Positions 11,459-53,112 of a stretch of DNA of 64,000 bases are shown one piece after another. Source of the stretch: Yuukianura sp. NJ FZ-2021. Taxonomy: Eukaryota. The stretch lies in NCBI GenBank assembly GCA_046563655.1, contig CM102286.1:8742001-8806000 (forward strand), given 5' to 3'. Positions within the stretch are counted from its first letter, which is position 1. Every line of letters begins with the position of its first letter. Both the position numbers and the translations under genes were made by a program. The notes under the pieces are model-generated. The model ran no database searches. It saw only the letters and a program-made list of their open reading frames with translations, and was not told the DNA's origin.

Positions 11459-11993
11459 TATGAGGTCATGGACCTCATCTGAGAACATTTAATTAAGTTA
11501 AATTAAGTAGGGCGAATGCCCATAAGTGGTTGTCCACGGTCTCCCTCCCTTTTTGTGTCGGCAGAGCCGACAGAAGAACTCAGCCAGAGTCCTCCTCCAG
11601 CTGCCACGCTGACAACAGCTCTCCAGGACTGCTCCGTCCATCTTCTCCAGGTCGCCTGCTTCCAGCCCAAAGGTCTCAGGTCAGGTCAGCAGTAGGCCAG
11701 TGATTGGCCTTGCCAGTGATTGGCATCGTCGTAGCCAGTGATTGGCTGGGTTGTGGCCAGTGATTGGCCGGGAGCCAGTGATTGGCTTTTCCCCTTCCCC
11801 CGGATCTGGGTTTGTCGGTTATGGCCCTTCAGGCCCGTTAGTTTAGCCCAAAGGGCTTAGTCTTTTAGTTAGTGTCTTCAGTTGCTACGATTTGAATAAA
11901 TCGTAGCTCAAAGATCATCAGTTTTTGGCGTTGTTTTCATTTATTTCATTGTGAGGCTGGAGCAGTGCGGAGAGGCACTGCTCAAGCCTCATA
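11459..11993 (+). repeat. 5' LTR (535 bp)
   Basis: TATGAGG...CCTCATA; direct repeat of 17263-17754; contains AATAAA. Confidence 0.95.
11695..11787 (-). promoter_or_regulatory. Five GCCAGTGATTGGC units (inverted CCAAT boxes) in the LTR
   Basis: Each unit reads GCCAATCAC on the minus strand, resembling an NF-Y site. There are only three units in the 3' LTR (17499-17551). Confidence 0.55.
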
Positions 11994-11995
11994 TC

Positions 11996-12007
11996 TGGTG
12001 CCCCGAG
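11996..12007 (+). promoter_or_regulatory. Primer-binding site, plausibly elongator tRNA-Met
   Basis: TGGTGCCCCGAG lies 2 nt after the 5' LTR and is complementary to a ...CGGGGCACCA tRNA 3' end. The tRNA identity is from recall. Confidence 0.7.
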
Positions 12008-12566
12008 CCTTAACTGCCCCCTTCAGAGACATGAGCATTTCATCATAATGGATGATTGATCAGTGATCAATCATCGATTCATGTAAAAACCGCAAAAATC
12101 GGTTCGGATGCCGATCATTGGGTAACGCAAAGCATGGTTTCCCACTTCCTATACATATAGTGCGCGAATCGGTACGGTTTTGCGCATATGTGGTAAAAAG
12201 ACATTTTTGATTTCAATTTTTCACTTGAGCGCGGTCCGAACCCCGATTCAACTTTCCGATTTCACTTTTCATTTTTCGTAAAGTCAATTACTAATTACAT
12301 GTACAAAGTTTAGATGCATAATTAATCATTCCTAATTAATTCCTGAATTCTAAATTCGCGTTTTTGTTTCCTTTTTTTGGTTATCTCAGGATTTTTACTC
12401 GCAGTCCGAGTAAGTGTTAGCACATTTAGTATAGGAGATTCCCGCTCCTTCCGCGCTCAGATCGGTCAAACATGCGCGCCGCGCTAGCGATCTCTCATTT
12501 GTTTTAACGGTTTTTTCTGCTACTCCAAAAACAGAAACAGATTTTTTTTGGGATTCTTTTGTAGCA

Positions 12567-13532
12567 ATGGCTACTAATGATGTCAAAGACGCAGAGATTG
12601 CGGATCTTACTGAGCAATTACGTGTATTAGAAACAGTGATGGATGATTTGCGTGCACAGCAGCGATTTTCCGCCGCGCCCGCTCCGGCCGCGCCCGCTCC
12701 ACAAGTAGTGCTTGTAGAACAAGCACCTGTGATTCCGATCCCAAAATATTCTCAGAAAATTCCAATTTCTTCCTTTTTTAAAGAAGCAGAAGAGTATTTT
12801 ACGCTCAAAAATTCGGATGAAAAGTCAAAACTTGTTTTAATTGGTTTCATGCTTCATAAAGATTCGGACATTTTTCGTTGGTGGTTGGATGTTAAGGATA
12901 ACATCACCTCCTGGGAACAATTCAAAATCGCATTTTTAAATTACGAAGGCATTGGTCAGTCTACAGACAAGCTTCTTTCTGATCTTTTCGCTAAAAAGCA
13001 ATTTTTTTCAGAAGCTTTTGAAACTTTTGCGTGGGATGTAGCGAATTCCTACAAACGAATTGACCCAAATGTTTCCACTGAAACGATTCGAGAACGGATT
13101 GTAAATTCTTGTCTTCCGGAAATTTCAATTTTGCTTAGATCTTCCCGCGCTACGAATGTAGCCGAGCTAATTGCGCATGGCAAACAAATTGTGGGCGATC
13201 TCAATCGGACTAGACGTTTTGAAAACAAGCCTTTGATTCGTGCGACAGCTTCTGATGATTTTTCCGATTTCAATCAAAGACTCAAGGACAGAGCAGCAGC
13301 ACGTCAACCGTCTAGAGCGGCTTACATTCCAAGGGAATCTTTCCAACCGCAGCCTATTGGGCCTATTTCAGTCCCACCCGAAAATTCTGGGGCAAGTCAA
13401 TTCTTTCCAAAGCAAGACTCGGAGGCTCAAACAGCTCCAATTTTTTCTGCCATGACTCCAAAACAACCGGAAATTTCTTATTCGCGCCCAGAGCGCGCTC
13501 CTAATATTCCGCCAAACTCCGACGGAAGGTAG
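12567..13532 (+). CDS. gag: Gag (321 aa)
   Basis: ATG-initiated ORF before pol with an N-terminal coiled coil and a retrotransposon capsid-like segment (RWWLDVKDNITSWEQFKIAFL). No CCHC knuckle visible. Confidence 0.88.
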   Translation: MATNDVKDAEIADLTEQLRVLETVMDDLRAQQRFSAAPAPAAPAPQVVLVEQAPVIPIPKYSQKIPISSFFKEAEEYFTLKNSDEKSKLVLIGFMLHKDSDIFRWWLDVKDNITSWEQFKIAFLNYEGIGQSTDKLLSDLFAKKQFFSEAFETFAWDVANSYKRIDPNVSTETIRERIVNSCLPEISILLRSSRATNVAELIAHGKQIVGDLNRTRRFENKPLIRATASDDFSDFNQRLKDRAAARQPSRAAYIPRESFQPQPIGPISVPPENSGASQFFPKQDSEAQTAPIFSAMTPKQPEISYSRPERAPNIPPNSDGR

Positions 13533-16500
13533 GACGGGAGTTCCCTATCCTTCCGAAATCGGATTTTTCCAAAGCAGCTCCCACAATTAAAATCAAAATT
13601 CGGAATTCCTTTTATTTTGCTCATTTGGATTCGCTATCAACTTATTCGCATATTTCCGCTTCTTTAGCCAAAGAACTCGGCTTGATTATTCAAAAAGGGC
13701 AAATTCAATTAACGATTGGTGACTCAAGTACAATCAGTACTTCCGGAACTGGAGAGTTACATTTCAAAATTTATACGGACGATTACATTCACACAGTCCA
13801 CATTCTCCAGTCTCCGCCTTTTCCAATTATTCTCGGACTTGACTTTATTCGGAAATATCATTTAGTCCCGGACTTTCATGACGGTACATTTTCGATTCTC
13901 GGAACAAAAACAACAGGTCGACTCGAATACTATTTTCAAAATCGTGAGTATTTATGTGCATTGCTTGGGCTCAGCGATGTGCAAACTCAGGAACTCAAAA
14001 GTCTGACCGACAGCTTTCCTTCACTTTTCTCATCTCAGTTAGGCCAAACTGATTGGGTCAAGTGTGAGTTGACACCGTCTCCCGGACCTCCTATTTCCTC
14101 TAAACCCTATCCGGTTAGTCCTTTCAAAAGACAGCTCATTTCGGACAACATTTCGGAAATGTTGAAACTGGGCGTCATTGAACCCTCTGATTCTGAGTGG
14201 GCCTCCCCTGTATATATGCACACTCGTGACAAAGGTCAGTCATGGAGATTTACTTTGGATTTGCGGAAAGTAAATGCTCGGCTACCTCATGATCCTTTTC
14301 CTATTCCTAGATTAGATTATTTATTTCATAACTTAGGTCAAGCTAAATTTCTTTCGGTGATTGATCTTAAGAAGGGCTACTGGCAAGTGGCCATGGATCC
14401 CCAGAGCGCAAAGTACACCGCTTTCATTTGTCATGAGGGTAAATTTCAATTTACGCGCATGCCCTTTGGTTTAAAGTCGGCCCCTTCTTTATTTCAACGC
14501 CTTGTAAATAAAATTTTAGGCACAGCGCGAGGACGCTTTGCTGACGGTTACATAGACGATATAATCGTCTATTCTAGTTCCTGGAAGGAACACTTAGAGC
14601 ATCTCAAGTACGTTTTTGAGAGATTAAATGCGGCTGGTCTCACTGTAAATATGCAGAAATGTGAGTTCGGTAAAACTACCCTCAAGTACTTAGGGTACAT
14701 TGTTTCTCCAAATGGAATTGAGAGAGACCCGGATAAGATTTCCGCTGTTTCCGATTTTCCCAGGCCGACGACGCCTAAACAAGTACGTCAGTTTTTAGGT
14801 CTTTGTTCTTGGTATCGACAGTTTGTCGAAAAATTTTCGGAGCTCAGCGAGCCCCTCAATCGGTTATTACACAAAGATGTTCCTTTTGTTTGGTCAGACG
14901 ACCAGGAATCTGCGTTTTTGAGGCTCAGAGCAGCCATTTGTTCGGATGATTTGGTTTTGGCTTTCCCGGATTTTTCCAAGGAGTTTATTATTCGGACGGA
15001 CGCGTCACGAGTTGGAGTATCCGCGGTTTTAGCCCAAGAAATTAACGGTTTTGAGAGACCAATTGCGTTTGCGAGTCGCTCTTTAAATAACGCTGAGAAG
15101 AATTACGGTTCCAGCGAAATTGAATGTGTCGGAATTTTGTTTGCTTTAAAGAAATTTGAACATTACATTGACGGTCAAAGATTTCGGCTTGAGACCGACA
15201 ACAAAGCTTTGGTTTGGTTGGACAAAATGAAAGACGTAAACAGCAAGTTTACTCGTTGGGCCCTTCGTATTCAAGATTTTCAGCCCATTATTACGCATTG
15301 TCCTGGCAAACTTAACGTTGTTGCTGATGCCCTGTCACGTGCCCCCGTGGGAGAAAGTGAGGATTGTGCACTGCTTACGGACACTGGAAAGGATTTCGTA
15401 GTCGACGACGGAATTCTTTACCGTTTGGGGAAATACGCTGGCAAACTTCCCTTTATTCCAACTTCTTTACGTTCTCAAGTTTTGAGTTACTTCCATGACA
15501 GACCGGTAGCAGGTCACATGGGCTTTCGTAAAACGCTTTACCGTCTTTTGCGTCGTGTTTTTTGGTTCGGAATGCACGAAGATATTTACAAGTTTGTCCA
15601 GTCTTGCGACATTTGTCAGCGGATTAAAAATCCTAATTCTAAACCGGTTGGTCAACTGCAAAGTGTTCAAACCAGAGGTCCTTGGGACATGCTGGCTTTA
15701 GATCTGATTGGTCCCCTTACGAAAACGCAACGTCAGAATACTTTCTTGCTCGTTGTCACTGATCATTTTACAAAATGGGTAGAATTATTCCCAATTCGAG
15801 AAGCTACGGCTCCTTTGATCGTTAAAAAAGTCGAACAAGAAATTTTCTGTCGTTTCGGTCGTCCCAGAGCCTTGTTAAGCGATAACGGTTCTCAATTTAC
15901 TTCCGAGTTATTTAAAAAGCTTTGTAAAACATGGAATGTCAAGTTGAAGTACACTACTACTTATCATCCCCAGGCAAACATCACTGAGCGCGTAAATCGT
16001 AACGTCATTGCTATTCTTCGCGCCTATGTCGCGAGAAAACACAGCAAATGGGATGAAAATTTACCGGAAGTCGCCATGGCTTTGCGCACTGCTATTTCGG
16101 ATTCTACCGGATTTAGTCCTTCGATGCTTAATTTTGGTCGTGAACTTTCGACTCCGTTTGATTTAGCGCTAGACGACTCTGACAGCGATGATTTTGCTGA
16201 GTGGACGCAGTACCAACTCACTTTGATTGAACGCCTTTCGAAAGTTTACCGTTTGGCTAGGGAGAATCTAGAAAAAGCGCAAGCGTCGCAAGCTAAGCAT
16301 TACAACAAGCATCGCCGCTCGGATGCATTTCAAATTGGCGATTTGGTACTTTTGCGTACTCATGAGAAGTCTGACAAGGCCAAGGGTTACATGAAAAAGT
16401 TCGCTTTTAAGTGGGAAGGCCCTTACATGATTTTTGAAAAGGTTACGGATTTAGTTTATGGCCTGAAATTTTGCGATTCTGACGAGGAAATTGGTCGTCA

Positions 16501-16642
16501 TAACATTGTGAATCTAAAACGCTACTTTTCAAGGCCAGGAACAGTCATTTCAGCGCCTTTGCCGCCTTCTAAGATCCCTAAATCAAAGCCTGAGCCTGTC
16601 ATTAGCAATTACAATCTGCGCAGTCGTGGTACTCTCAATTGA
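13505..16642 (+). CDS. pol: Pol polyprotein (PR-RT-RNase H-integrase) in the -1 frame relative to gag
   Basis: Frame is open from 13505. Motifs: PR-like FAHLDSLSTYSHIS and ILGLDF; RT MPFGLKSAP and YIDD; RNase H TDAS, ETDNKAL, VADALSR; IN zinc finger H..H..CDIC, LDLIG, SDNGSQF, TERVNR; GPY. Confidence 0.97.
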   Translation, partial: YSAKLRRKVGREFPILPKSDFSKAAPTIKIKIRNSFYFAHLDSLSTYSHISASLAKELGLIIQKGQIQLTIGDSSTISTSGTGELHFKIYTDDYIHTVHILQSPPFPIILGLDFIRKYHLVPDFHDGTFSILGTKTTGRLEYYFQNREYLCALLGLSDVQTQELKSLTDSFPSLFSSQLGQTDWVKCELTPSPGPPISSKPYPVSPFKRQLISDNISEMLKLGVIEPSDSEWASPVYMHTRDKGQSWRFTLDLRKVNARLPHDPFPIPRLDYLFHNLGQAKFLSVIDLKKGYWQVAMDPQSAKYTAFICHEGKFQFTRMPFGLKSAPSLFQRLVNKILGTARGRFADGYIDDIIVYSSSWKEHLEHLKYVFERLNAAGLTVNMQKCEFGKTTLKYLGYIVSPNGIERDPDKISAVSDFPRPTTPKQVRQFLGLCSWYRQFVEKFSELSEPLNRLLHKDVPFVWSDDQESAFLRLRAAICSDDLVLAFPDFSKEFIIRTDASRVGVSAVLAQEINGFERPIAFASRSLNNAEKNYGSSEIECVGILFALKKFEHYIDGQRFRLETDNKALVWLDKMKDVNSKFTRWALRIQDFQPIITHCPGKLNVVADALSRAPVGESEDCALLTDTGKDFVVDDGILYRLGKYAGKLPFIPTSLRSQVLSYFHDRPVAGHMGFRKTLYRLLRRVFWFGMHEDIYKFVQSCDICQRIKNPNSKPVGQLQSVQTRGPWDMLALDLIGPLTKTQRQNTFLLVVTDHFTKWVELFPIREATAPLIVKKVEQEIFCRFGRPRALLSDNGSQFTSELFKKLCKTWNVKLKYTTTYHPQANITERVNRNVIAILRAYVARKHSKWDENLPEVAMALRTAISDSTGFSPSMLNFGRELSTPFDLALDDSDSDDFAEWTQYQLTLIERLSKVYRLARENLEKAQASQAKHYNKHRRSDAFQIGDLVLLRTHEKSDKAKGYMKKFAFKWEGPYMIFEKVTDLVYGLKFCDSDEEIGRHNIVNLKRYFSRPGTVISAPLPPSKIPKSKPEPVISNYNLRSRGTLN
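13511..13555 (+). promoter_or_regulatory. Candidate -1 programmed ribosomal frameshift signal
   Basis: G_CCA_AAC in the gag frame, a 5-nt spacer, then stem CGGAAGG-TAGG / CCTATCCTTCCG. The heptamer lies in the 28-nt gag/pol overlap. Confidence 0.6.
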
Positions 16643-17246
16643 TTTCCGTTTTTCTTCTTTTTGTTCCAGCCAAAGCGTTTCCTGAACCGGCTCCTTCCTA
16701 AATTCCAAAACTTGCCCAATTCCAAGCGCTCGGACGCGGAAAACGCTCATTTTGATTCTAAACTTTATTGGAAATGCTCCGTTCGCATCCATACCATTTT
16801 TCAAAAACCAAAACCGAAGTTTCGGTACACCAAAAAGCCTTAAAAGCGACGATCTTTTGTGCTACAAATTGTTAGTTAAGCTGGGGCTAGAGCCCCTTAG
16901 TTAAGTGTACTCAGCACGAATTCCAAAATTAGTCTTAGTTTTTTGCACATTTTCATTCATTTTGCCATTGTTTCTTGTTTATTTCATTATTTTTGTCAGT
17001 TTTTGTTTATAGTCGATTCCAATTCTTTAGTTCATTTTTTGTAGTTTGCAAAATTTTTTGTCATTTTCCATTTTTGTGTATAGTCGATCCCATTAGTTTA
17101 GTTTCTTTTTTATTCCTAAGTTTGCCAAAATTTTCTGTTCATAGTGGAGCTAAGTTTTTGTTGTTTAGGTTGCAAATTTTTTGTGTACAGTTTTAGAGCT
17201 AAGTTAGTTAGTTAGCCCTGGTCCAACCCCTGGAGCAACGCTTCAT

Positions 17247-17262
17247 GGCGAGGAGGGGGTGA
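17247..17262 (+). promoter_or_regulatory. Polypurine tract
   Basis: GGCGAGGAGGGGGTGA immediately before the 3' LTR. Confidence 0.85.
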
Positions 17263-17754
17263 TATGAGGTCATGGACCTCATCTGAGAACAATTAATTAA
17301 GTTAAATTAAGTAGGGCGAATGCCCATAAGTGGTTGTCCCCGGTCTCCCTCCCTTTTTGTATCGGCAGAGCCGACAGAAGAACTCAAGCAGATTCCTCCT
17401 TCTGCTGCCACGCTGACAACAGCTCTCCAGGACTGCTCCGTCCATCTTCTCCAGGTCGCCTGCTTCCAGCCCAAAGGTCTCAGGTCAGGTCAGCAGTAGG
17501 CCAGTGATTGGCCTTGCCAGTGATTGGCATCGTCGTAGCCAGTGATTGGCTGTCCCCTTCCCCCGGATCTGGGTTATCGGTATGGCCCTTCAGGCCCGTT
17601 AGTTTAGCCCAAAGGGCTTAGTGTTTTAGTTAGTGTGTTCAATCGCTACGATTTGAATAAATCGTAGCTCGAGATCATCGGTTTTCGGTTGTTGTTTTCA
17701 TTTATTTCATAGTGAGGCTGGAGCAGTGCAGAGAGGCACTGCTCAAGCCTCATA
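17263..17754 (+). repeat. 3' LTR (492 bp)
   Basis: TATGAGG...CCTCATA followed by TSD AAAT. Confidence 0.95.
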
Positions 17755-32700: not shown

Positions 32701-33316
32701 GTTATCTGAGGAGTCAAAATTGCAACCCGAAATTATGCTTCTGAAAGCCCATATGAAGTGTTCCAAACTCACTTTTTCTCCGAAAAATCCATTCTTTTCA
32801 TTTAAAACTCACCAAAAAGTCATTCTGGGTTATCTGAGGAGTCAAAATTGCAAACCAAAATTATGCTTCTGAAAGCCCATCTGAAGTGTTCCAAACTCAA
32901 TTTTTCACCAAAAACTCCATTTTTTTCATTTAAAACTCCCCAAAAAGTCATTCTGGGTTATCTGAGGATTCAAAATTGCAACCCGAAATTATGCTTCTGA
33001 AAGCCCATATGAAGTGTTCCAAACTCACTTTTTCTCCGAAAAATCCATTCTTTTCATTTAAAACTCACCAAAAAGTCATTCTGGGTTATCTGAGGAGTCA
33101 AAATTGCAAACCAAAATTATGCTTCTGAAAGCCCATCTGAAAAGTTCCAAGCTCAATTTTTCACCAAAAACTCCATTTTTTTCATTTAAAACTCCCCAAA
33201 AAGTCATTCTGGGTTATCTGAGGAGTCAAAATTGCAACCCGAAATTATGCTTCTGAAAGCCCATCTGAAGTGTTCCAAACTCAATGTTTTTCCGAAAAAT
33301 CCATTTTTTTCATTAA
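17755..33316. repeat. ~128-bp satellite array, block 4
   Basis: About 120 uninterrupted monomers with recurring variant series. Confidence 0.98.
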
Positions 33317-33495
33317 GGAGAGACTGGAGGTCAATAAAAACAACGCCAAAGAACGTTTTGTAGACATGGCAACGACTGAAAATTTAGAATTTACAACCTA
33401 CGTAATCATGAAAAACCCGAACGGGTGGATTCTTTACGATTGAAATTTTGCACAACGTAAGCTTACGTCCCGATCAATCCGTTTCATAGTCGTGC

Positions 33496-33943
33496 ATGAG
33501 GTCAATTCGTAAGCATGACCAATTCGTAATCAGAAAAGTCGTAAGCACCGTCAATTCGTAAGCATATCTTTTCGTATCCTTGGGTTTCCGTTTCGTAGAG
33601 TTTGGTTTTTAGGTTTTCTTTTGTCAAAATTTGGGAAATAAGGCTATCACCATCTAAAACGCAGTTTTTAGCGAAATGTAAGTCATACTGCCCACAATTC
33701 TTAATTGAATTTAGCTTATGCTATGTTAGTTTAAGTCAGGTTAGGTTTTTTAGGTTATTTTTTCTTAAAAATTTTGAAATTGAAATAGGGTTTACGAGAC
33801 TTACGAAAGCACTGCTTACGATTTGGGCTGTTTCCGAATTGACCATGCTTACGAGTTGTCCCTACTTATGAATTGTCGGCTTACGAAATTGAGTTTACAA
33901 ATTGACTGTTTACGAATTTGAGCTTACAAATTGACCTGGAACC
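33496..33943. mobile_element. MULE/foldback-like MITE with subterminal repeats; left end probably deleted
   Basis: GTCAATTCGTAAGC-like units on the left and inverted GCTTACGAATTGAC-like units on the right, ending ...ACCTGGAACC. Flanked by GTCGTGC(A/G)TG at 33489 and 33944. Confidence 0.6.
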
Positions 33944-34327
33944 GTCGTGCGTGCTCTAAATTGTATTATAAAATGTCTTCAGGAAAATATGAAAGCATGA
34001 ATACTATTTCGAAAAATAACACATGCATATAATTTTATTTCTGGGGATTATGTTTGAATGACAAGTGTGGCCAGTGAAGCTGCAGAAGACAAAGTCGTAA
34101 AATGTGTTGACAAACATGATTTCTCTCTGGAAGATTGAAAAACATTGAGACTATTTTAAAGCATATTTATTAGACAAAATTATAACGAACCAAATTTGAA
34201 TACTAATGACGAATAATAGTAGTAATGATAATAGTAATAATACAATACATACAGCTATAGTTATTACTATTTCCTGATATCCAATTTAGTATGATTAGTT
34301 TGGCCGAAGACACAAACATGCTAGGAT

Positions 34328-37040
34328 TTATAAGTTTTCTGGAACCTCATCTGTTGACCTACGCTTCCTTTCGAGACGTGACTTTTGGATTGCTTCGAGT
34401 CTGTAGTTTGGTTGTTTGATGGGCATCGACCGTGCGACTCGCGAGTTGACGATCTCTGGCCCCAAGTCTTCACGGTAGAATTTCAGCAGTTTGGTGGTCA
34501 TCTTATTCCATAGACAGCCAGTTGCATCATCACGATAAATTCGCTCAATGTAGAGAGGAAAGTCGACAATTCCCTTGGACGTATTCCGAAAACTGTAGAC
34601 TACAAAGTCACACCATTGCCTTCCACTGACATGCAATTGCATCACGATTTGACTAGAGAAAACACATAAAACAATTCGCAACCTTGTACTCAAACCATAT
34701 TAATGCTCGGCTAAATTCTGAAAGACATACCGATAGTACTTGTGGTTCTTCTTCAATTCCAAAACTTGTTCGCTTCCAAGAGCAGTTGAGCTTGATGCCA
34801 ATCCTAAGAAGGAAGTCTTTTTCATGATCGAAGGCATCTCTTTCGGAGCAAATCCAATCATGGATTGTGGACATTTCACTTCGATAAGGCCATCTTCTCC
34901 AACCAATCCATCTGGTGAAGCTGCAAAGACCCCATGATCGATACTGACAAAAAGACCAGACGGTCTGACGACGACATTTGTTTCTTTCTCATAAGCGCGT
35001 ATTGCATAGGCTTCGTACTTCTTCCCGTGTGTAATGCCTGCAAGGTGGGATAAGCACTTGGGATACAGAAGCTTGGATACGACGGACGAGTTGTTCGTTG
35101 AGTCCTTTAGAGAAAAAACCTCCCCAGCTACAGATGCCGTTATCCTCCCACCTCGCTCCACTGTCCACATTTCGGATTCCGATTGGAGCGTAGTACCTTG
35201 TAGAATTCTCTTCTGTTGTTCTATGGTGACATTTTTGCTCTGCATGAGCTGCACAACCTGATCCCGAACAGTATCATCATCAAAGTCTTCGTCAGCTGCG
35301 TTGGGACCGTAATCTGCATCTGGTTGATTGGGAGTGTTTGGTTTACAAGTCTTCCTCAGCTTCTGCTTACTCTTCTTTGCGGTTTGTGCTTTTTTTGCAG
35401 CATTTAGTGCGGCAACTTTCCACCGTCTTGATGGACTTCGATGGTTCAAACTTTTGAATGCATCCGCATAGAAACAAGCTCCTTTGTTGAAGGATAGTGC
35501 TGAAGTGGAAGCTTTGAGCTTCCATCCTCCCCTCTGTATGACGTTCAGCCGCTTTCCATGATTAAATTTTGCCACTCTGCTCATAAAAGACTCACAAATG
35601 TTGGAGGTCAAGTTTGGCATTAGTCTTGAAGAAATGGAGGCAATCTGTTTGAATCGATGGATGACATCGCTCCAGAGCGACGTATCTTGCAGGGCAACAA
35701 ACAAGTTCTCATTTTTAGTTGTTCCATCGCAAAAGTATGAAGCACAGTTCTGATGTCGCCCGAAGGTATGGAAAGGAATGTTTTCAATGTCCTTCCGTAA
35801 CAGACTATCATTTCTGTGTGACTCTTGGCTTCTGTAACTGATGGCTGCTCGAAGTGACTTGCCCATTCTGTGCATCTGGGATTTCAAAACCTGGCGTTCT
35901 CTAAGACTATACATTTTGGTAGCCTTCGTAGCAGCAATGCAAAACTTATTCAAGTTCTTCACAATGTGATTGACGCATTCAGCCTTCTCGATTTGAATTC
36001 CAGGGTAGATTTGTGAATTCACCAGAGTATGATAAACCGAGGAGTCACCATCAGCGATCAGAGTCTTGAAGACAAGTCCATGCATTTCAATACTTGCTCT
36101 GAAGCCTTCTTGTATGATTCGAGTTTCCATCACAGTTGCGCTGACAGCTTCATCCCAGTTCTTGTAACAGATATGTTCCTTTGGGGGTTGACCAGAGCTA
36201 CTGGCTCTTTTGCAGACGATGCAGAACATGTTCTTTATCCCAATGTAAAGCAGTTTTTTGCTTCTGGCGCCAATAAGGACAGCGACGCCGCCTTTGGATT
36301 TGAAAGAATGGCCGTAGGATCTCGTGCACCACGCACCATCGGCGTACACGGAAGTACATGGGTATGTGATACCCTCAATGACGACAGTGTCTTTCGCAGC
36401 TTCAGCTAATTGGACCTCCAACTTTCCATTTTCAAGTATCTGCTCGGCAAGTGTTTCATCCCATTGTTTGGTCAGTTTCTCTAAGTGCCTGCTGTATGTC
36501 TTGAACACTGGAAAAGGAATATCCATGACTGTCATCATGTGTTTGGAAGCTTCGTAGTTGCTAGCTCCAGCGCATGTGCCCCACACAAGACTCTCGTTCA
36601 CCGGTAGAGTTACCCCAGCTTCTTCCTTGTCCGACGAAATCCAATTTTTCCAATCACATGAAGTACAGCGAACTAACATGCGGCTTCGAAGGCCCATTCT
36701 TGTTTCCTTAAACCAAAGTAACTTCATTTTAATGCTGTAACCTACTAGAGACAGCTAACAACAAGATGATGTAAACTCTTACTTTGTCAAACACCAACAC
36801 AGGATTGGAACAAATTGCTCCGTGGCGTGATGCTGCATTCAAGGACAAGAGCCATTGGGAGACTGTAATTATTCGCCTGCCGGAAATACTCTTTTCGTTT
36901 GAGCCGCATTGAGCTGGGGTTGCGGAAGGCACGTCTTCAATGGTTCCCTTTTGATGTTGGTTGTTCCTCCATTTTCGATATCCAGTCTTTTTGGCAGTTG
37001 CAACTTTCCTCGAAAAATAGCGCTTGCGTTGTCTGCCCAT
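34328..37040 (-). CDS. DDE transposase (Kolobok/Mutator-like) fused to a C-terminal YqaJ/lambda-exonuclease domain; 3 coding exons, ~852 aa
   Basis: Exons 37040-36783, 36706-34731 and 34652-34328 with GT-AG introns of 76 and 78 bp give one open frame (FDK|ETR; YYR|QIVMQ). DDE motifs: YADGAWCTRSYGH, CIVC, IADGDSS, ECVNH, NICES. YqaJ motifs: W..ER.GRITAS, ASPDGLVGEDGLIEVKCP, QIVMQL...WCDFVV. Confidence 0.88.
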
Positions 37041-38370
37041 CCTGAAATAACGAACATCGTTAGTAAAGATGGAAAACATTGCCGAATTTTCAATCCCAAG
37101 TCCAACAACCTAACCTAATCGAAATACGCACTCTAACAAAAACCCCAAGGAACAGGGAACCTCTACGCACCGTGTAGTTGTGGTCAAGACGTCAGCAAAT
37201 GATATAGATGACGCAGAATACTGCGAAAAGAGAAGATGCCCCTAATAGTCTGGAGAAGTCAATGCCCTAACAACATTTGGCCAGCATTCGTGGAAACCAA
37301 GGGGTTACGTAATTCGCAAAATTCTTCACATTTCATATAAAGGTTGGCGATTGCAGAGGACTGCATGTGCCACAGACGAAAAAAAAAATGGACAGCGTAA
37401 CCCCAAGGCCTGGCCAAATGTGAGTTTTGGACCAGACTCTAGGCACGCTCAGACTTAGGCCATCATAGAAATTCTGGTCCCCTCCCTCCGGAGTATGTGA
37501 GAACATCAAACGACGAGGAAGCGAGGAGAAGTCTGGTCCTGGATGTATGGTGCCAAGTATTTAAAAATTTCAAGTGGGGGCAGCAATTAAGCCGCTTGAC
37601 GTTTCCTTCTGGGTTGGACCCCCTCGCGGGGGGGAGGGGGGGGGCAAATATCTATGGTTAATATGCCAAACTTGCTCCTCTCATGCAAATGAAGAACTTT
37701 TGCTTGTCTAGTCTATAACACGGGAACTTATCCTATGTGTTAAGCGCATGGGAAAACTCGGGAACATATACTTGTTTTTAGCATGGCTGAAAAGCGGGAA
37801 ATTTGAGAAAAATCGGAATCGGTTATACTAAAGTACCTATGCATATATAAGGGGCCTAGATATTTCTTTTCTAATATTTGTTTTCTAAAGCTGGACTTAC
37901 GAGACGTAAGTTTTCCCGTGATTTTTTTTCACCCCAATTTCGACAAATTTGTGTAATTTTTTGAAAACTTTCGCCATTTTTGATGTAAAAATTGACATAC
38001 TTGGACGTAGTTACGGGAAAAAGTCCTAAAAAAGTTTTTATGGTCGAAAAAGTTTTTAAAACTTTTTTAAAAGTCCGCCAAGTGCTAAAAGGGCTAAAAA
38101 GTTTTTACGTCATTATCCGATCTATGGTCATAAGGATGATTAATTTTTGATTGTGATTTGTAACACAGACATAAACATAAAGCACATACAAACATGAAGT
38201 ACCTCATACTTTCGCTACTTAATAATTGTTAGGCAGCGGGACAGAGTGACATGATTACCTTATAAAGTAACTTTACTATCCTTGACAGAGGGACAGTGAC
38301 ATGAGGACATCATAAAGGAACTTTGACAGGGGGACAGAATGACATAGGGACATCATAAAATATGTTTGCT

Positions 38371-38745
38371 TAAGTCTGTCAGATGGACACAGTGACATTG
38401 GAACTCATAAAGTAGCTTTGGTAAGTCCGACAGATGGACAGAGTGACATTGGAACTCATAAAGTAGCTTTGGTAAGTCCGACAGATGGACAGAGTGACAT
38501 TGGAACTCATAAAGTAGCTTTGGTAAGTCCGACAGATGGACACAGTGACATTGGAACTCATAAAGTAGCGTTGGTAAGTCTGACAGATGGACACAGTGAC
38601 ATTGGAACTCATAAAGTAGCTTTGGTAAGTCTGACAGATGGACACAGTGACATTGGAACTCATAAAGTAGCTTTGGTAAGTCTGACAGTTGGACAGAGTG
38701 ACTTTGGAACGCTTAAAGTAGCTATGGTGACTTTGTCCGAAGGAC
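38371..38745. repeat. 51-bp minisatellite (~7 copies, with degenerate copies upstream to ~38240)
   Basis: Unit cagatggacacagtgacattggaactcataaagtagctttggtaagtccga at 38380, 38431, 38482 and onward. Confidence 0.95.
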
Positions 38746-38826
38746 AGACGGACACATGGACATGTCCAACATGTGTTCTTGGTACTTTAGTATAATGCTT
38801 GCAGCCTTTTCACATGCTGGTAAGAC

Positions 38827-39394
38827 TAGGGCTGTTCAAGTTCCGGTTCCAGATCCGGAACTTTTACGGTTCCAGTTCCGTTTCCGGATCCGTTTCCTAA
38901 ATATTTGGAACCGGAACTTATTTTCGGATCCGGTTCGGATCCAGTTCCATTGTATGATGGAACCGGTTCTTCCGGCATTTGGAACTGGAACCGGTTAACT
39001 TCATTATCGCCAAATTCAAACAGAAAATTTTGCTTAAAAAGCTGGTATGCATCACCAAAACAATTTAACGAAAAATGAATTGACAAAGTACAAGTGGCTT
39101 ATAAGTCCCTTGGTGAATATTTATATACGATAACTAAACCTAACAATTTAACTAATATACAGATTAGTTAAATTGTTAGGTTTAGATACCCTTTTGCAAT
39201 TTATGAACGGGACAAATGCATTTTCTGCTTTTATTCCGGTTCCAGTTCCGGTTCGGTTCGGATCCGGTTCCGGTTCGGTTCGTTTCCGGTTCTGAATTTT
39301 TGAACTAGTTCGGTTCCGTTACCAAATTTATCAGTTCCAGTTCCGGATCCGTTTCCATGTGGATCCGATCCGATCCGGAACTTGAACAGCCCTA
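38827..39394. mobile_element. hAT-family MITE (568 bp)
   Basis: Perfect 20-bp TIR TAGGGCTGTTCAAGTTCCGG, 8-bp TSD GGTAAGAC (38819-38826 and 39395-39402), and many subterminal CCGGTT/GGATCC repeats. Confidence 0.95.
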
Positions 39395-39685
39395 GGTAAG
39401 ACAGGCAAATGTTGCAGCTTTTTAGACCGAGCCATGCTAAATACATGCAAAACTTCTCGAGTTTTCCCATGCCCTTAACACATACGAAAAGTTCCGTTTT
39501 TAGACCGAGCCAATTTTGTGAGGGTCATTTCCCCGATTTTTATATTGAAAAGGCTGAAGACGTTGACCTTTGACCCAGTAAAAGCTCACGGCTCCAGATG
39601 ATTTGATAAACATGAATTGACATGAGGTATGAGATATCGATTGGTGAAAACCGGGATGAAATCGGTCCAGTATTTTTACATCTCT

Positions 39686-39859
39686 AAGTACCATTGCAAT
39701 GATAGGCACTATGTTAAGGAACCCATCAAATGCTCCGCTCGAAAGTACATTGACTACCACATGACATGGATTCAGGATCAACTGGGTGACGAAACACGGT
39801 ATCCATTCTCATAACATTTCGTAGAAGTTGTTCAATTAGGAGAACTACATCCTAACACA
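39686..39859 (+). pseudogene. MOB1: Decayed fragment of MOB kinase activator 1 (MOB1/mats)
   Basis: VKEPIKCSARKYIDYHMTWIQDQLGDETRYP matches MOB1 IKKPIKCSAPKYIDYLMTWVQDQLDDETLFP. After a stop, HFVEVVQLGELHPNT matches HF.EVV.LGEEAHLNT. Confidence 0.85.
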
Positions 39860-40283
39860 ATTACCTGCTTCTAATAAATTAAACTATACGAATAAGGAGA
39901 AAGAGATTACCTGAAGAAGTGACCTTGACTGGCCAGAGACTGAAGACGATGACACTTGACTCGATTACGTCTGGATATGAATAGGATGACCAGGACACGG
40001 ACTGACAACTGATTGATTGATTATTTATTGACTTTCGGTGATACACCCTGATCAACACGGACTGACAACCGACTGACAAGACAGTGGACGAACAAAGAAA
40101 GAGACTGACTTCTTTGAATTTTGAAAACTGAAATTCGGAGATCATTCGCGCGGATTTTTCTAAAAGGTCATGCGCAGTGGGTGAGCCACACTTGAGACTA
40201 AATTCTCACGTCGCCCCAACTCTTAGTGACGTATTCCGTAAATAGTAAATTGTAAACAAGAAATTCGTGAACTCTGACCCAAT

Positions 40284-40600
40284 CTTCTGGTGCACTTCCT
40301 GACTGATTGGTAAGACCCTCAGAAAACTACGACCACACTTTTCGCATTAGCGCACGCCAATACACAGCACACCTGACGATTATTTGAAGAAAACAGGACC
40401 CTTCGCCCAGAAAACTTAGGTTTTCTGGGTTTTCCCAGGATTTCAGAAACATCTTCCAGAAAACCTAAGTTTTCTGGGCGAAGGGTCCTGTTTTCGTCAA
40501 ATAATCGTCAGGTGTGCTGTTTATTAGCGTGTGCTAATGCGAAAAGTGTGGTCGTAGTTTTCTGAGCGTCTTACCAATCAGTCAGGAAGTGCACCAGAAG
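40284..40600. repeat. Long palindrome (145-bp arms, 27-bp spacer)
   Basis: 40284-40428 is the reverse complement of 40456-40600 with a few mismatches. Confidence 0.95.
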
Positions 40601-41183
40601 TCTTATGGGAAATTGGGTAATAAGCGAATCTGTCCATCGTAATCTTAAATACTCTTCAAAAAGTCATTCTGGGCTATCTGAGATGTCAAAATTGCAAACC
40701 GAAATTATGCTTCTGAAAGCCCATATGAAGTGTTCCAAACTCAATTTTTCTCCGAAAAATCCATTTTTTTCATTTAAAACTCCCCAAAAAGTCATTCTGG
40801 GTTATCTGAGGAGTCAAAATTGCAAACCGAAATTCTGCTTGTGAAGGCACATCTGAAAAGTTCCAAGCTCAATTTTTCACCAAAAACTCCATTTTTTTCA
40901 TTTAAAACTCCCCAAAAAGTCATTCTGGGCTAACTGAGGAGTCAAAATTGCAACCCGAAATTATGCTTCTGAAAGCCCATCTGAAGTGTTCCAAACTCAA
41001 TTTTTCACCAAAAAATCATTTTTTTCATTAAATAGTCTTCAAAAAGTCATTCTGGGCTATCTGAGGAGTCAAAATTGCAAACCGAAATTATGTTTGTGAA
41101 AGCCCATCTGAAGTGTACTAACCTCAATTTTCTTCGAAAAAATCTATTTTTTTCATTAGAAACTCTACAAAAGTCATTCCCGG

Positions 41184-41687
41184 TGTTATGAAACAGTCAA
41201 TTTCCATAATAACGAGAGTTCACTAGAGTTCATTGCCAAATTGAATTGTCACTCTAAAAGTAGCTCATTGTTATACTTTTAACAAACACAACCTATGTAC
41301 AACTTGTCTTTTGTTGTAGTAATTAGAAGTTAGGCCTACAAATGATTTACATATATTCCAAGTAGGGTAACTTCTGACTCTATTCTACTCCAGTGGTTTC
41401 CGGTTGAATCCCTATAAAAAGGGCTCAGTCCGGCCAGCAAGATTCATTCTGTTTTCTGCTCTTGACCTCTGGTCAATAGGACTTAGTGTCCTACGCCTAC
41501 TCCTATGCCTTGTCACAAACTTTGTCCGTCAAAATAAAGTTCATTAACCTTTCCTATTGCAAAACATTGCAAAAGACATTAGTAGTGAAGATTTGTTTCA
41601 TTTATTTTATCATTTCACTACATTTGGTGGTACGAGCTGCTGAATCCTATGGCTTCCACAGGAAGCGAAAATGCGAAAAGCGAAAAT
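41184..41687 (+). mobile_element. Truncated LTR retrotransposon: 439-bp LTR, PBS and possible gag start (long form, copy 1)
   Basis: TGTTATGAAA...TTTCACTACA (41184-41622) with CTATAAAA and AATAAA, then TTTGGTGGTACGAG and ATG GCT TCC ACA GGA (MASTGSENAKSEN). It joins the satellite at GAAAAT. Confidence 0.75.
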
Positions 41688-45833: not shown

Positions 45834-46338
45834 TGAAACAGTCAAAATTGCAAACCGAAATAACGAAAGTTCACTAGAGTTCATTGCCAAATTGAATTGT
45901 CACTCTAAAAGTAGCTCATTGTTATACTTTTAACAAACACAACCTATGTACAACTTGTCTTTTGTTGTAGTAATTAGAAGTTAGGCCTACAAATGATTTA
46001 CATATATTCCAAGTAGGGTAACTTCTGACTCTATTCTACTCCAGTGGTTTCCGGTTGAGTCCCTATAAAAAGGGCTCAGTCCGGCCAGCAAGATTCATTC
46101 TGTTTTCTGCTCTTGACCTCTGGTCAATAGGACTTAGTGTCCTACTCCTACTCCTATGCCTTGTCACAAACTTTGTCCGTCAAAATAAAGTTCATTAACC
46201 TTTCCTATTGCAAAACATTGCAAAAGACATTAGTAGTGAAGATTTGTTTCATTTATTTTATCATTTCACTACATTTGGTGGTACGAGCTGCTGAATCCTA
46301 TGGCTTCCACAGGAAGCGAAAATGCGAAAAGCGAAAAT
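45834..46338 (+). mobile_element. LTR fragment, long form, copy 2 (5' end mosaic with satellite)
   Basis: Near-identical to 41184-41687. Confidence 0.8.
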
Positions 46339-52300: not shown

Positions 52301-52608
52301 CACCAAAAAATCATTTTTTTTTTCATTTAAAACTCACCAAAAAGTCATTCTGGGCTATCTGAGGAGTCAAAATTGCAAACCGAAATTATGCTTCTGAAAG
52401 CCCATCTGAAGTGTTCCAAACTCAATTTTTCACCAAAAAATCATTTTTTTCATTAAATAGTCTTCAAAAAGTCATTCTGGGCTATCTGAGGAGTCAAAAT
52501 TGCAAACCGAAATTATGCTTGTGAAAGCCCGTCTGAAGTGTACCAAGCTCAATTTTCTTCGAAAAAATCCATTTTTTTCATTAGAAACTCTCCAAAAGTC
52601 ATTCCCGG

Positions 52609-53112
52609 TGTTATGAAACAGTCAATTTCCATAATAACGAGAGTTCACTAGAGTTCATTGCCAAATTGAATTGTCACTCTAAAAGTAGCTCATTGTTATA
52701 CTTTTAACAAACACAACCTATGTACAACTTGTCTTTTGTTGTAGTAATTAGAAGTTAGGCCTACAAATGATTTACATATATTCCAAGTAGGGTAACTTCT
52801 GACTCTATTCTACTCCAGTGGTTTCCGGTTGAGTCCCTATAAAAAGGGCTCAGTCCGGCCAGCAAGATTCATTCTGTTTTCTGCTCTTGACCTCTGGTCA
52901 ATAGGACTTAGTGTCCTACTCCTACTCCTATGCCTTGTCACAAACTTTGTCCGTCAAAATAAAGTTCATTAACCTTTCCTATTGCAAAACATTGCAAAAG
53001 ACATTAGTAGTGAAGATTTGTTTCATTTATTTTATCATTTCACTACATTTGGTGGTACGAGCTGCTGAATCCTATGGCTTCCACAGGAAGCGAAAATGCG
53101 AAAAGCGAAAAT
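52609..53112 (+). mobile_element. LTR fragment, long form, copy 3
   Basis: Same junctions as copy 1 (attcccgg|TGTTATG). Confidence 0.8.

Follow-up and report, generated by a model that had tools for sequence, protein, structure and literature searches.

A TTAA-flanked insert with unrelated ends in a Yuukianura satellite array carries a KolobokE-like transposase-exonuclease gene

What kind of element placed a 7.3-kb block of foreign DNA in the middle of a satellite array, and why do the two ends of that block not resemble each other? The block lies in a stretch of 64,000 nucleotides from Yuukianura sp. NJ FZ-2021 (assembly GCA_046563655.1, contig CM102286.1, positions 8,742,001 to 8,806,000 of the forward strand), hereafter the window. 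Across this 64-kb window a 128-bp satellite forms a long array, broken by 12 non-satellite blocks, the largest of which, at 33317-40644, is the subject of this analysis. An earlier note, made from the letters alone, had put it forward as a candidate for an undescribed system, but the architecture of its protein, its target site and its end signature all fit lineage E of the Kolobok superfamily (KolobokE), and the candidate new system is thereby removed. With a probability of roughly 0.6, the insert is a cut-and-paste copy of a KolobokE element at a satellite TTAA, into which MITEs (miniature inverted-repeat transposable elements) were nested later, and its ends probably derive from two fused TTAA-inserting elements.

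The position of the block in the satellite is precise. A BLAST map of the satellite delimits a non-satellite interruption of 7,328 bp with TTAA on both sides, and the map and the junctions together give the following features:

33313..33316, no strand: left TTAA, a copy of the target site; the satellite ends ...TTCATTAA right before the insert.
33317..40644, no strand: the whole non-satellite insert of 7,328 bp, starting GGAGAGACTGG and ending CCATCGTAATC (5'-GG..TC-3').
40645..40648, no strand: right TTAA, a copy of the target site; the satellite continues as TTAAATACTCTTC, with the monomer anchor 18 nt further on, the usual TTAA phase.

Joined with a single TTAA, the flanks ...TTCATTAA and TTAAATACTCTTC give the monomer variant TTCATTAAATACTCTTCA, the commonest TTAA-bearing variant; the left array has 39 other TTCATTAA sites, and 18 of them show it. 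The two flanks have 4 bp only in common.

The identity of the insert rests on a gene on its minus strand, the structure of which is as follows:

34328..37040, minus strand: transposase-exonuclease gene of three exons encoding 852 amino acids, from the spliced open reading frame (ORF), Pfam and the splice sites.
37040-36783, 36706-34731 and 34652-34328 (stop included), minus strand: exons, from splice sites in the sequence.
36782-36707 (76 nt) and 34730-34653 (78 nt), minus strand: introns, both GT..AG.

A 684-aa open frame on this strand matches PF20700, 'Mutator-like transposase' (1.9e-70), and the YqaJ domain PF09588 (5.4e-12), the latter over residues 530-631 of the frame and continuing into exon 3. 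An in-frame stop at 34700 falls inside the 78-nt intron, and the 76-nt intron connects an upstream exon bearing the conserved GRRI motif. The spliced 852-aa ORF contains no stop, and its residues 52-819 align with P0001, a homologue of 870 aa (E = 7.6e-152), bearing out the earlier description of the gene as intact. In an alignment of 18 sequences, comprising the protein and 17 homologues, D139, D235/D237 and E388 are invariant or nearly so, and the CCHC finger after the first D (C178/C181/H194/C196), the CxxH motif (C260/H263) and a Zn finger before the last E (H329/H334/C337/C342) are conserved. The D...ExK motif of the nuclease is present as ...SPDG...IEVKCP. Support from the runs, which comprise three runs of one sample and a second organism, consists of short contigs only; in these the gene is found in a few diverged copies, and of the best-supported 40 of 1,041 differences between copies, 20 are listed as coding and 17 of those are synonymous. 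Apart from the gene, none of the 20 ORFs of at least 80 aa has a Pfam match above cut-off, and no tyrosine or serine recombinase domain is present among them, in agreement with the earlier observation that no tyrosine recombinase is encoded. A host-gene fragment, also listed in the earlier note as cargo, was not recovered: ORFs in 39500-40205 have no Pfam match, and no longer protein is homologous to the 102-aa ORF at E<=0.001.

The first description of Kolobok is due to Kapitonov & Jurka (as cited in PMC9587614), and the superfamily is characterized, in the portion of Kojima & Bao (2022, PMC9587614) available, by TTAA-specific 4-bp duplications, by termini of the form 5'-RR..YY-3' that differ from those of piggyBac, and by a C/DxxH motif that it has in common with hAT, P, MuDR and Dada, with a Zn finger downstream of the motif. 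The same portion of that paper describes a CCHC finger after the first D in a few Kolobok lineages including KolobokE, and defines KolobokE by a DDE transposase with a lambda-exonuclease-like nuclease downstream (Kojima & Bao 2022, Mob DNA 13:24, PMC9587614). The insert has TTAA at both flanks and GG..TC termini of the RR..YY form, and its protein has the DDE residues, the C/DxxH motif with a Zn finger after it, the CCHC finger after the first catalytic D, and a fused YqaJ domain of the PD-(D/E)xK type with D...ExK. Judged by these described features, the gene is assigned to the Kolobok superfamily and, within it, to the KolobokE lineage. The focal copy differs from KolobokE in that it has no terminal inverted repeats: none of the Kolobok type scores above shuffles, and neither end has an internal partner in the insert. 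No paper was found in the literature that pairs 'Mutator-like transposase' with 'YqaJ', and PMC9587614 was the only one found that pairs 'Kolobok' with 'lambda exonuclease'.

Relatives of the protein indicate how such elements behave. A homology search returned 59 proteins of at most 45% identity, many of which have both domains. Named homologues come from ticks, springtails, insects, a brine shrimp, a coral and a clam, and are annotated as hypothetical or uncharacterized in all cases but one, which carries an unrelated name. In a scan of metagenome contigs with protein alignment, 250 of 306 candidate stretches encode homologues, and 80 of these loci were kept; no relative was found in viral contigs. 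About 50 of the 80 loci come from one set of long contigs, where they form multi-copy families. Family F1, with nine copies of ~4.03 kb at >=99.4% identity, has the ends TTAA-GGTTAGGGTA...TACCCTAACC-TTAA, and F2, F3, L018, L049, L051/L073, L054, L065 and, from another source, L013 are laid out alike, their inverted repeats being 10-17 bp long. Across the 80 loci, TTAA precedes 65 of the 75 occurrences of eight terminal 10-mers. In the relatives examined, the family of proteins in which PF20700 is fused to YqaJ thus belongs to TTAA-inserting, GG..CC-ended elements and serves as a mark of them, and the earlier note's alternative of a Kolobok-like element was correct as to gene and target site.

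The comparison with these families also reveals where the focal insert departs from them. F1-F4, L013, L018, L049, L051/L073, L054 and L065 encode a homologous fused protein of 30-37% identity over nearly its full length and have TTAA duplications and 5'-GG ends, as the insert does. However, the focal insert lacks two features that they possess: inverted repeats, perfect or nearly so, of 10-17 bp (GGTTAGGGTA, GGTTACGGGTACC...), and subterminal motifs that are conserved among them (CCTCATGAAT..., GAGTGGGTGGA). At 7.3 kb, the insert is larger than most related families (~4-5 kb, with one candidate of ~8 kb) because of its nested repeats.

The same set of long contigs (L024-L031, L035, L048 and others) contains at least five young transposase-YqaJ families, the subterminal motifs of which are conserved but asymmetric, one end having CCTCAT(G/T)AAT..ATGAG and the opposite end GAGTGGGTGGA. 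The families look recently active, and they would be good material for defining the ends of KolobokE.

Other known systems fit the insert less well. The Pfam label 'Mutator-like' stands for no more than a distant similarity and does not imply MuDR behaviour: MuDR and other Mutator-like elements (MULEs) make duplications of 8-11 bp and usually have long inverted repeats, whereas the duplication here is a 4-bp TTAA and the relatives have repeats of 10-17 bp. The TTAA duplication is common to piggyBac, but the piggyBac transposase is unrelated by Pfam, only PF20700 and PF09588 having been found here. The termini of piggyBac are CCC..GGG. Helitrons encode a Rep/helicase gene, have 5'-TC...CTRR-3' ends with a small hairpin 10-20 nt from the 3' end, and make no duplication. 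The insert does not fit this pattern, as the ends are GG..TC (GA..CC on the other strand), no Rep/Hel domain is present, and the palindrome near the right end is a 317-bp multi-copy foldback. ISL2EU elements make a duplication of 2 bp. They encode a protein with a YqaJ exonuclease domain (Han et al. 2014, PMC4122938), but in the portion of that paper available the domain is in a separate ORF beside a PIF/Harbinger-like transposase, whereas it is fused to the transposase here.

The two ends are unrelated to each other, as had been claimed from the letters alone. Smith-Waterman alignment of the left 200 nt with the right 200 nt gave scores of 15 (inverted) and 14 (direct) against a shuffle mean of 16.6, and 241 of 300 shuffles scored as high in the inverted and 290 of 300 in the direct orientation. 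No partner of either terminal 14-mer (<=3 mismatches) or 20-mer (<=5) was found anywhere in the window, the right end's outermost 45 nt scored 20 against the body, inverted or direct, where the null mean is 19.9, and the two terminal 14-mers are identical at 6 of 14 positions by eye, no better than chance. Of the two, the right end is the one that resembles the termini of relatives:

40634..40644, plus strand: right terminus CCATCGTAATC, reverse complement GATTACGATGG.

The first seven letters of that reverse complement, GATTACG, match GGTTACG, the terminus of families F2 and L018, at 6 of 7 positions; the left end matches GGTTAGG at 4 of 7 and resembles the relatives' termini only as GG..AG.

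Three shorter similarities of the ends were noted. The right-terminal 11-mer CCATCGTAATC has a 9/11 direct copy, CCTACGTAATC, at 33397-33407, 81 nt inside the left end, so that the first 91 bp have GG..TC ends like the whole block. Construction of the right terminus from the 15-nt unit of the hairpin described below as MITE-A was rejected, since fewer than 10 of 15 positions match and the background is ~1.7 such hits per kb; the 7-mer CGTAATC is the sole sequence common to the terminus and the unit. A recurrence of the left end before the foldback at ~40101, where the 8-mer AGAGACTG is in common, was likewise rejected as not above shuffles.

Between the ends, the insert is a patchwork of a hairpin unit, low-copy DNA, the gene, a 1.8-kb inverted-repeat element and a foldback. 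Besides the gene, it contains:

33429..33917, no strand: 'MITE-A', a hairpin MITE-like unit with arms at ~33429-33603 and ~33769-33917 and ~15-nt units GGTCAATTCGTAAGC.
33996..34269, no strand: low-copy spacer downstream of the gene, not common to other gene copies at >=85% likeness.
37711..39505, no strand: nested element of 1.8 kb with inverted repeats of ~73-78 nt (82%), from the inverted-repeat map.
38324-38728, no strand: tandem array of a 51-bp unit, 7.9 copies, 92% matches, within the 37711-39505 element.
38826..39395, no strand: nested MITE of 570 bp with 24-nt inverted repeats (96%), inside the 37711-39505 element.
40284..40600, no strand: foldback palindrome with arms of 145 nt (40284-40428 and 40456-40600, 97% complementary), ending 44 bp from 40644.

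The earlier account of MITEs in the cargo and of a long palindrome 44 bp from the right end was therefore accurate, several MITE-like units being nested inside. The arms of MITE-A align with a score of 84 (shuffle mean 37, maximum 66), and the unit is multi-copy in the runs, with a depth of 1176-2428 against ~100 in adjacent unique DNA. The spacer at 33996-34269, by contrast with the depth of 180-540 across the gene, has a summed depth of 103 in X1 and 105 in X2; at this single-copy depth, the 7.3-kb unit is not visibly repeated. The right part of the insert is made up of repeats of very different copy number. The foldback belongs to a very high-copy family, with a depth of 35,732 in X1, hundreds of times that of the gene. 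If the ends of the 570-bp MITE are taken as TAGGGCTG.., its flanks contain an intact duplication of 8 bp, GGTAAGAC; a duplication of that length is the hAT pattern. The 51-bp tandem array, too, has a high copy number in the runs (depth 4,000-8,000 against ~100). Among the 26 TTAA sites internal to the insert, the only strong pair, the TTAA-bounded one at 37740/39475 (15/16), falls within a longer inverted repeat; it was considered as a nested Kolobok MITE and rejected, as the repeat extends 29 nt past the TTAAs.

How, then, could an insertion that looks exact have two unrelated ends? The array contains 122 TTAA in ~121.6 monomers, about one per monomer, and 107 of the 122 sit 17-18 nt before the same anchor. 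Therefore, that phase is the only one open to a TTAA-targeting element, two junctions at TTAA sites of the array are automatically in phase whichever they are, and two TTAA insertions followed by an internal deletion are indistinguishable from one exact insertion. The claim of an exact insertion at a satellite TTAA holds in that the TTAA pair rebuilds a common monomer variant, but it is weakened as evidence of a single event, of which an exact TTAA-flanked insertion in this array is not proof. More generally, a seemingly exact insertion in a satellite with one TTAA per monomer should not be assumed to be one event.

The history ranked first is one in which the focal copy is most likely no longer the unit originally inserted. 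By analogy with its family, the transposase would bind the ends of the element, excise it and join it into TTAA, with duplication of the TTAA. The C-terminal PD-(D/E)xK nuclease probably acts on DNA ends, either in the course of this reaction or following it, and as a fused lambda-exonuclease-type domain it plausibly resects 5' strands at breaks. The outer ends would come from two different TTAA-inserting elements, stacked at one TTAA or located in different monomers, which an internal deletion would have fused into an in-phase TTAA-flanked block with unrelated ends, and the MITEs would have nested into the copy later. This history of the mismatched ends is inferred, as is the role of the nuclease; the mismatch itself is probably a secondary peculiarity. 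Points in its favour are that inverted repeats are lacking here and present in the relatives examined, that each monomer has one TTAA at a fixed phase, that the DNA downstream of the gene is at single-copy depth, and that the right part is a patchwork of repeats. If the two ends do come from separate elements, copies elsewhere would mostly pair the left end with an inverted partner such as ...CCAGTCTCTCC-TTAA, and the right end with one such as TTAA-GATTACGATGG....

Several results weigh against this history. No other TTAA-phase insertion was found in the window, and a close double hit is not obviously likely. Within the block, no satellite remnant scored above chance (best score 26, 99th percentile of shuffles 25), nothing was found of the lost ends, and no inverted partner of either terminus lies beside any of the 26 internal TTAA sites, tested pairwise. 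A contig in X1 and X2 links 33418 to 39898 with AA between. This contig hints at an internal-deletion derivative of one element with both end regions, or alternatively at an allele of the locus. Finally, the KolobokE assignment is drawn from the published description of the lineage.

The alternative that survives best, although unlikely, is that the insert is a true Kolobok without terminal inverted repeats, which moves whole as the 7.3-kb unit or as its precursor before the MITEs nested. Its transposase would recognize two different ends with only the RR..YY/TTAA signature in common, the ends being TTAA-RR..YY-TTAA, and the 33418-39898 contig, which ties both end regions, would be an internal-deletion derivative located elsewhere. 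The exact TTAA pair, which restores a single common monomer variant, the GG..TC ends that fit the Kolobok rule, and the intact gene with its predominantly synonymous differences are consistent with this possibility. There is also a parallel outside Kolobok, as the available portion of Dupeyron et al. 2019 (PMC6446971) mentions MULE families without inverted repeats and a 'Ghost' MULE clade in which no terminal inverted repeats or target-site duplications were found. Such MULEs resemble the insert in having a DDE transposase of the hAT/P/MuDR/Kolobok group (C/DxxH) without recognizable inverted repeats, but their duplications are of 8-11 bp and not TTAA. However, all related families with findable ends have 10-17-bp inverted repeats, no second full copy was seen and the 33996-34269 spacer is at single-copy depth, and the similarity of the two terminal 14-mers is at chance level. 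If true, this would be the first Kolobok to transpose without terminal inverted repeats, extending the 'non-TIR' phenomenon of MULEs to this superfamily; pick-up of long cargo would be possible, and an intact transposase with two asymmetric ends would make a tractable biochemical pair.

Next in order, and also doubtful, is a single event with one real and one cryptic end, in which the transposase paired the KolobokE-like right end with a chance TTAA-GG in the flank of the donor, and ~1 kb of foreign flank, consisting of MITE-A and unique DNA, was carried along with the gene. One event would account for the exact TTAA pair, the DNA from the gene to the left end consists in part of unique sequence and in part of an unrelated MITE, and only the right end resembles the termini of relatives (6/7 to GGTTACG, against 4/7 to GGTTAGG for the left). 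Conversely, no remnant of a true downstream end is present in 33317-34328, and in the portions of the literature covered, the use of a cryptic end by Kolobok is not documented.

An assembly artefact, that is, a chimeric join of repeats in a satellite-rich region, is improbable. The region is repeat-dense, and none of the contigs or reads listed crosses the whole block or either outer junction. On the other hand, many internal junctions are covered by contigs of three runs and of the second organism, with few differences (33916-34552, 33685-34020, 35261-36701, 36848-37278 and 39616-40009), and both outer junctions fall exactly at an in-phase TTAA, which is not expected of a random misjoin. Satellite-to-satellite joints in the contigs (33080 to 41019, 33156 to 41002, and 33169 to 41019) are uninformative, the flank being satellite, and one X3 contig, which departs from the window at 40633 and reaches its end, ...TTAA, after 11 nt more, is too thin for use. 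A loose end at 33456 in four runs was considered as a family boundary and set aside, since by eye its letters resemble the window and were taken as diverged copies; its 20-nt consensus is not in the window.

Least probable of all is a Crypton-like pack element, as suggested earlier, or another recombinase-driven one, site-specific at TTAA, that merely captured the transposase gene: the missing inverted repeats and the short direct repeat at the borders would suit it, but no recombinase domain of the tyrosine or serine type is encoded in any ORF of at least 80 aa, and the sole gene present codes for a DDE transposase whose own superfamily produces TTAA duplications, so that no second system is needed.

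Other blocks in the window are of separate interest. A Ty3/gypsy-type long terminal repeat (LTR) retrotransposon at 11462-17753 has gag and pol frames that are open over 365 aa and 1,045 aa, respectively, and its LTRs of ~490-530 bp are only 88% identical, which is odd given the intact ORFs. A 940-bp element at 627-1566 has 36-nt inverted repeats (92%) starting CAGGGGGGGGCG and lies at a satellite TA; a TA duplication is the Tc1/mariner pattern. One further non-satellite sequence, an insert of 148-503 bp, recurs eight times at 99-100% identity:

41180-41682, 45862-46333 and 52605-53107: copies of the recurrent insert.
54873, 57152, 58890, 62451 and 63326: 148-bp pieces of the recurrent insert.

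The right junction is the same in every copy, and amplification apparently took in both the sequence and the satellite, within a higher-order repeat.

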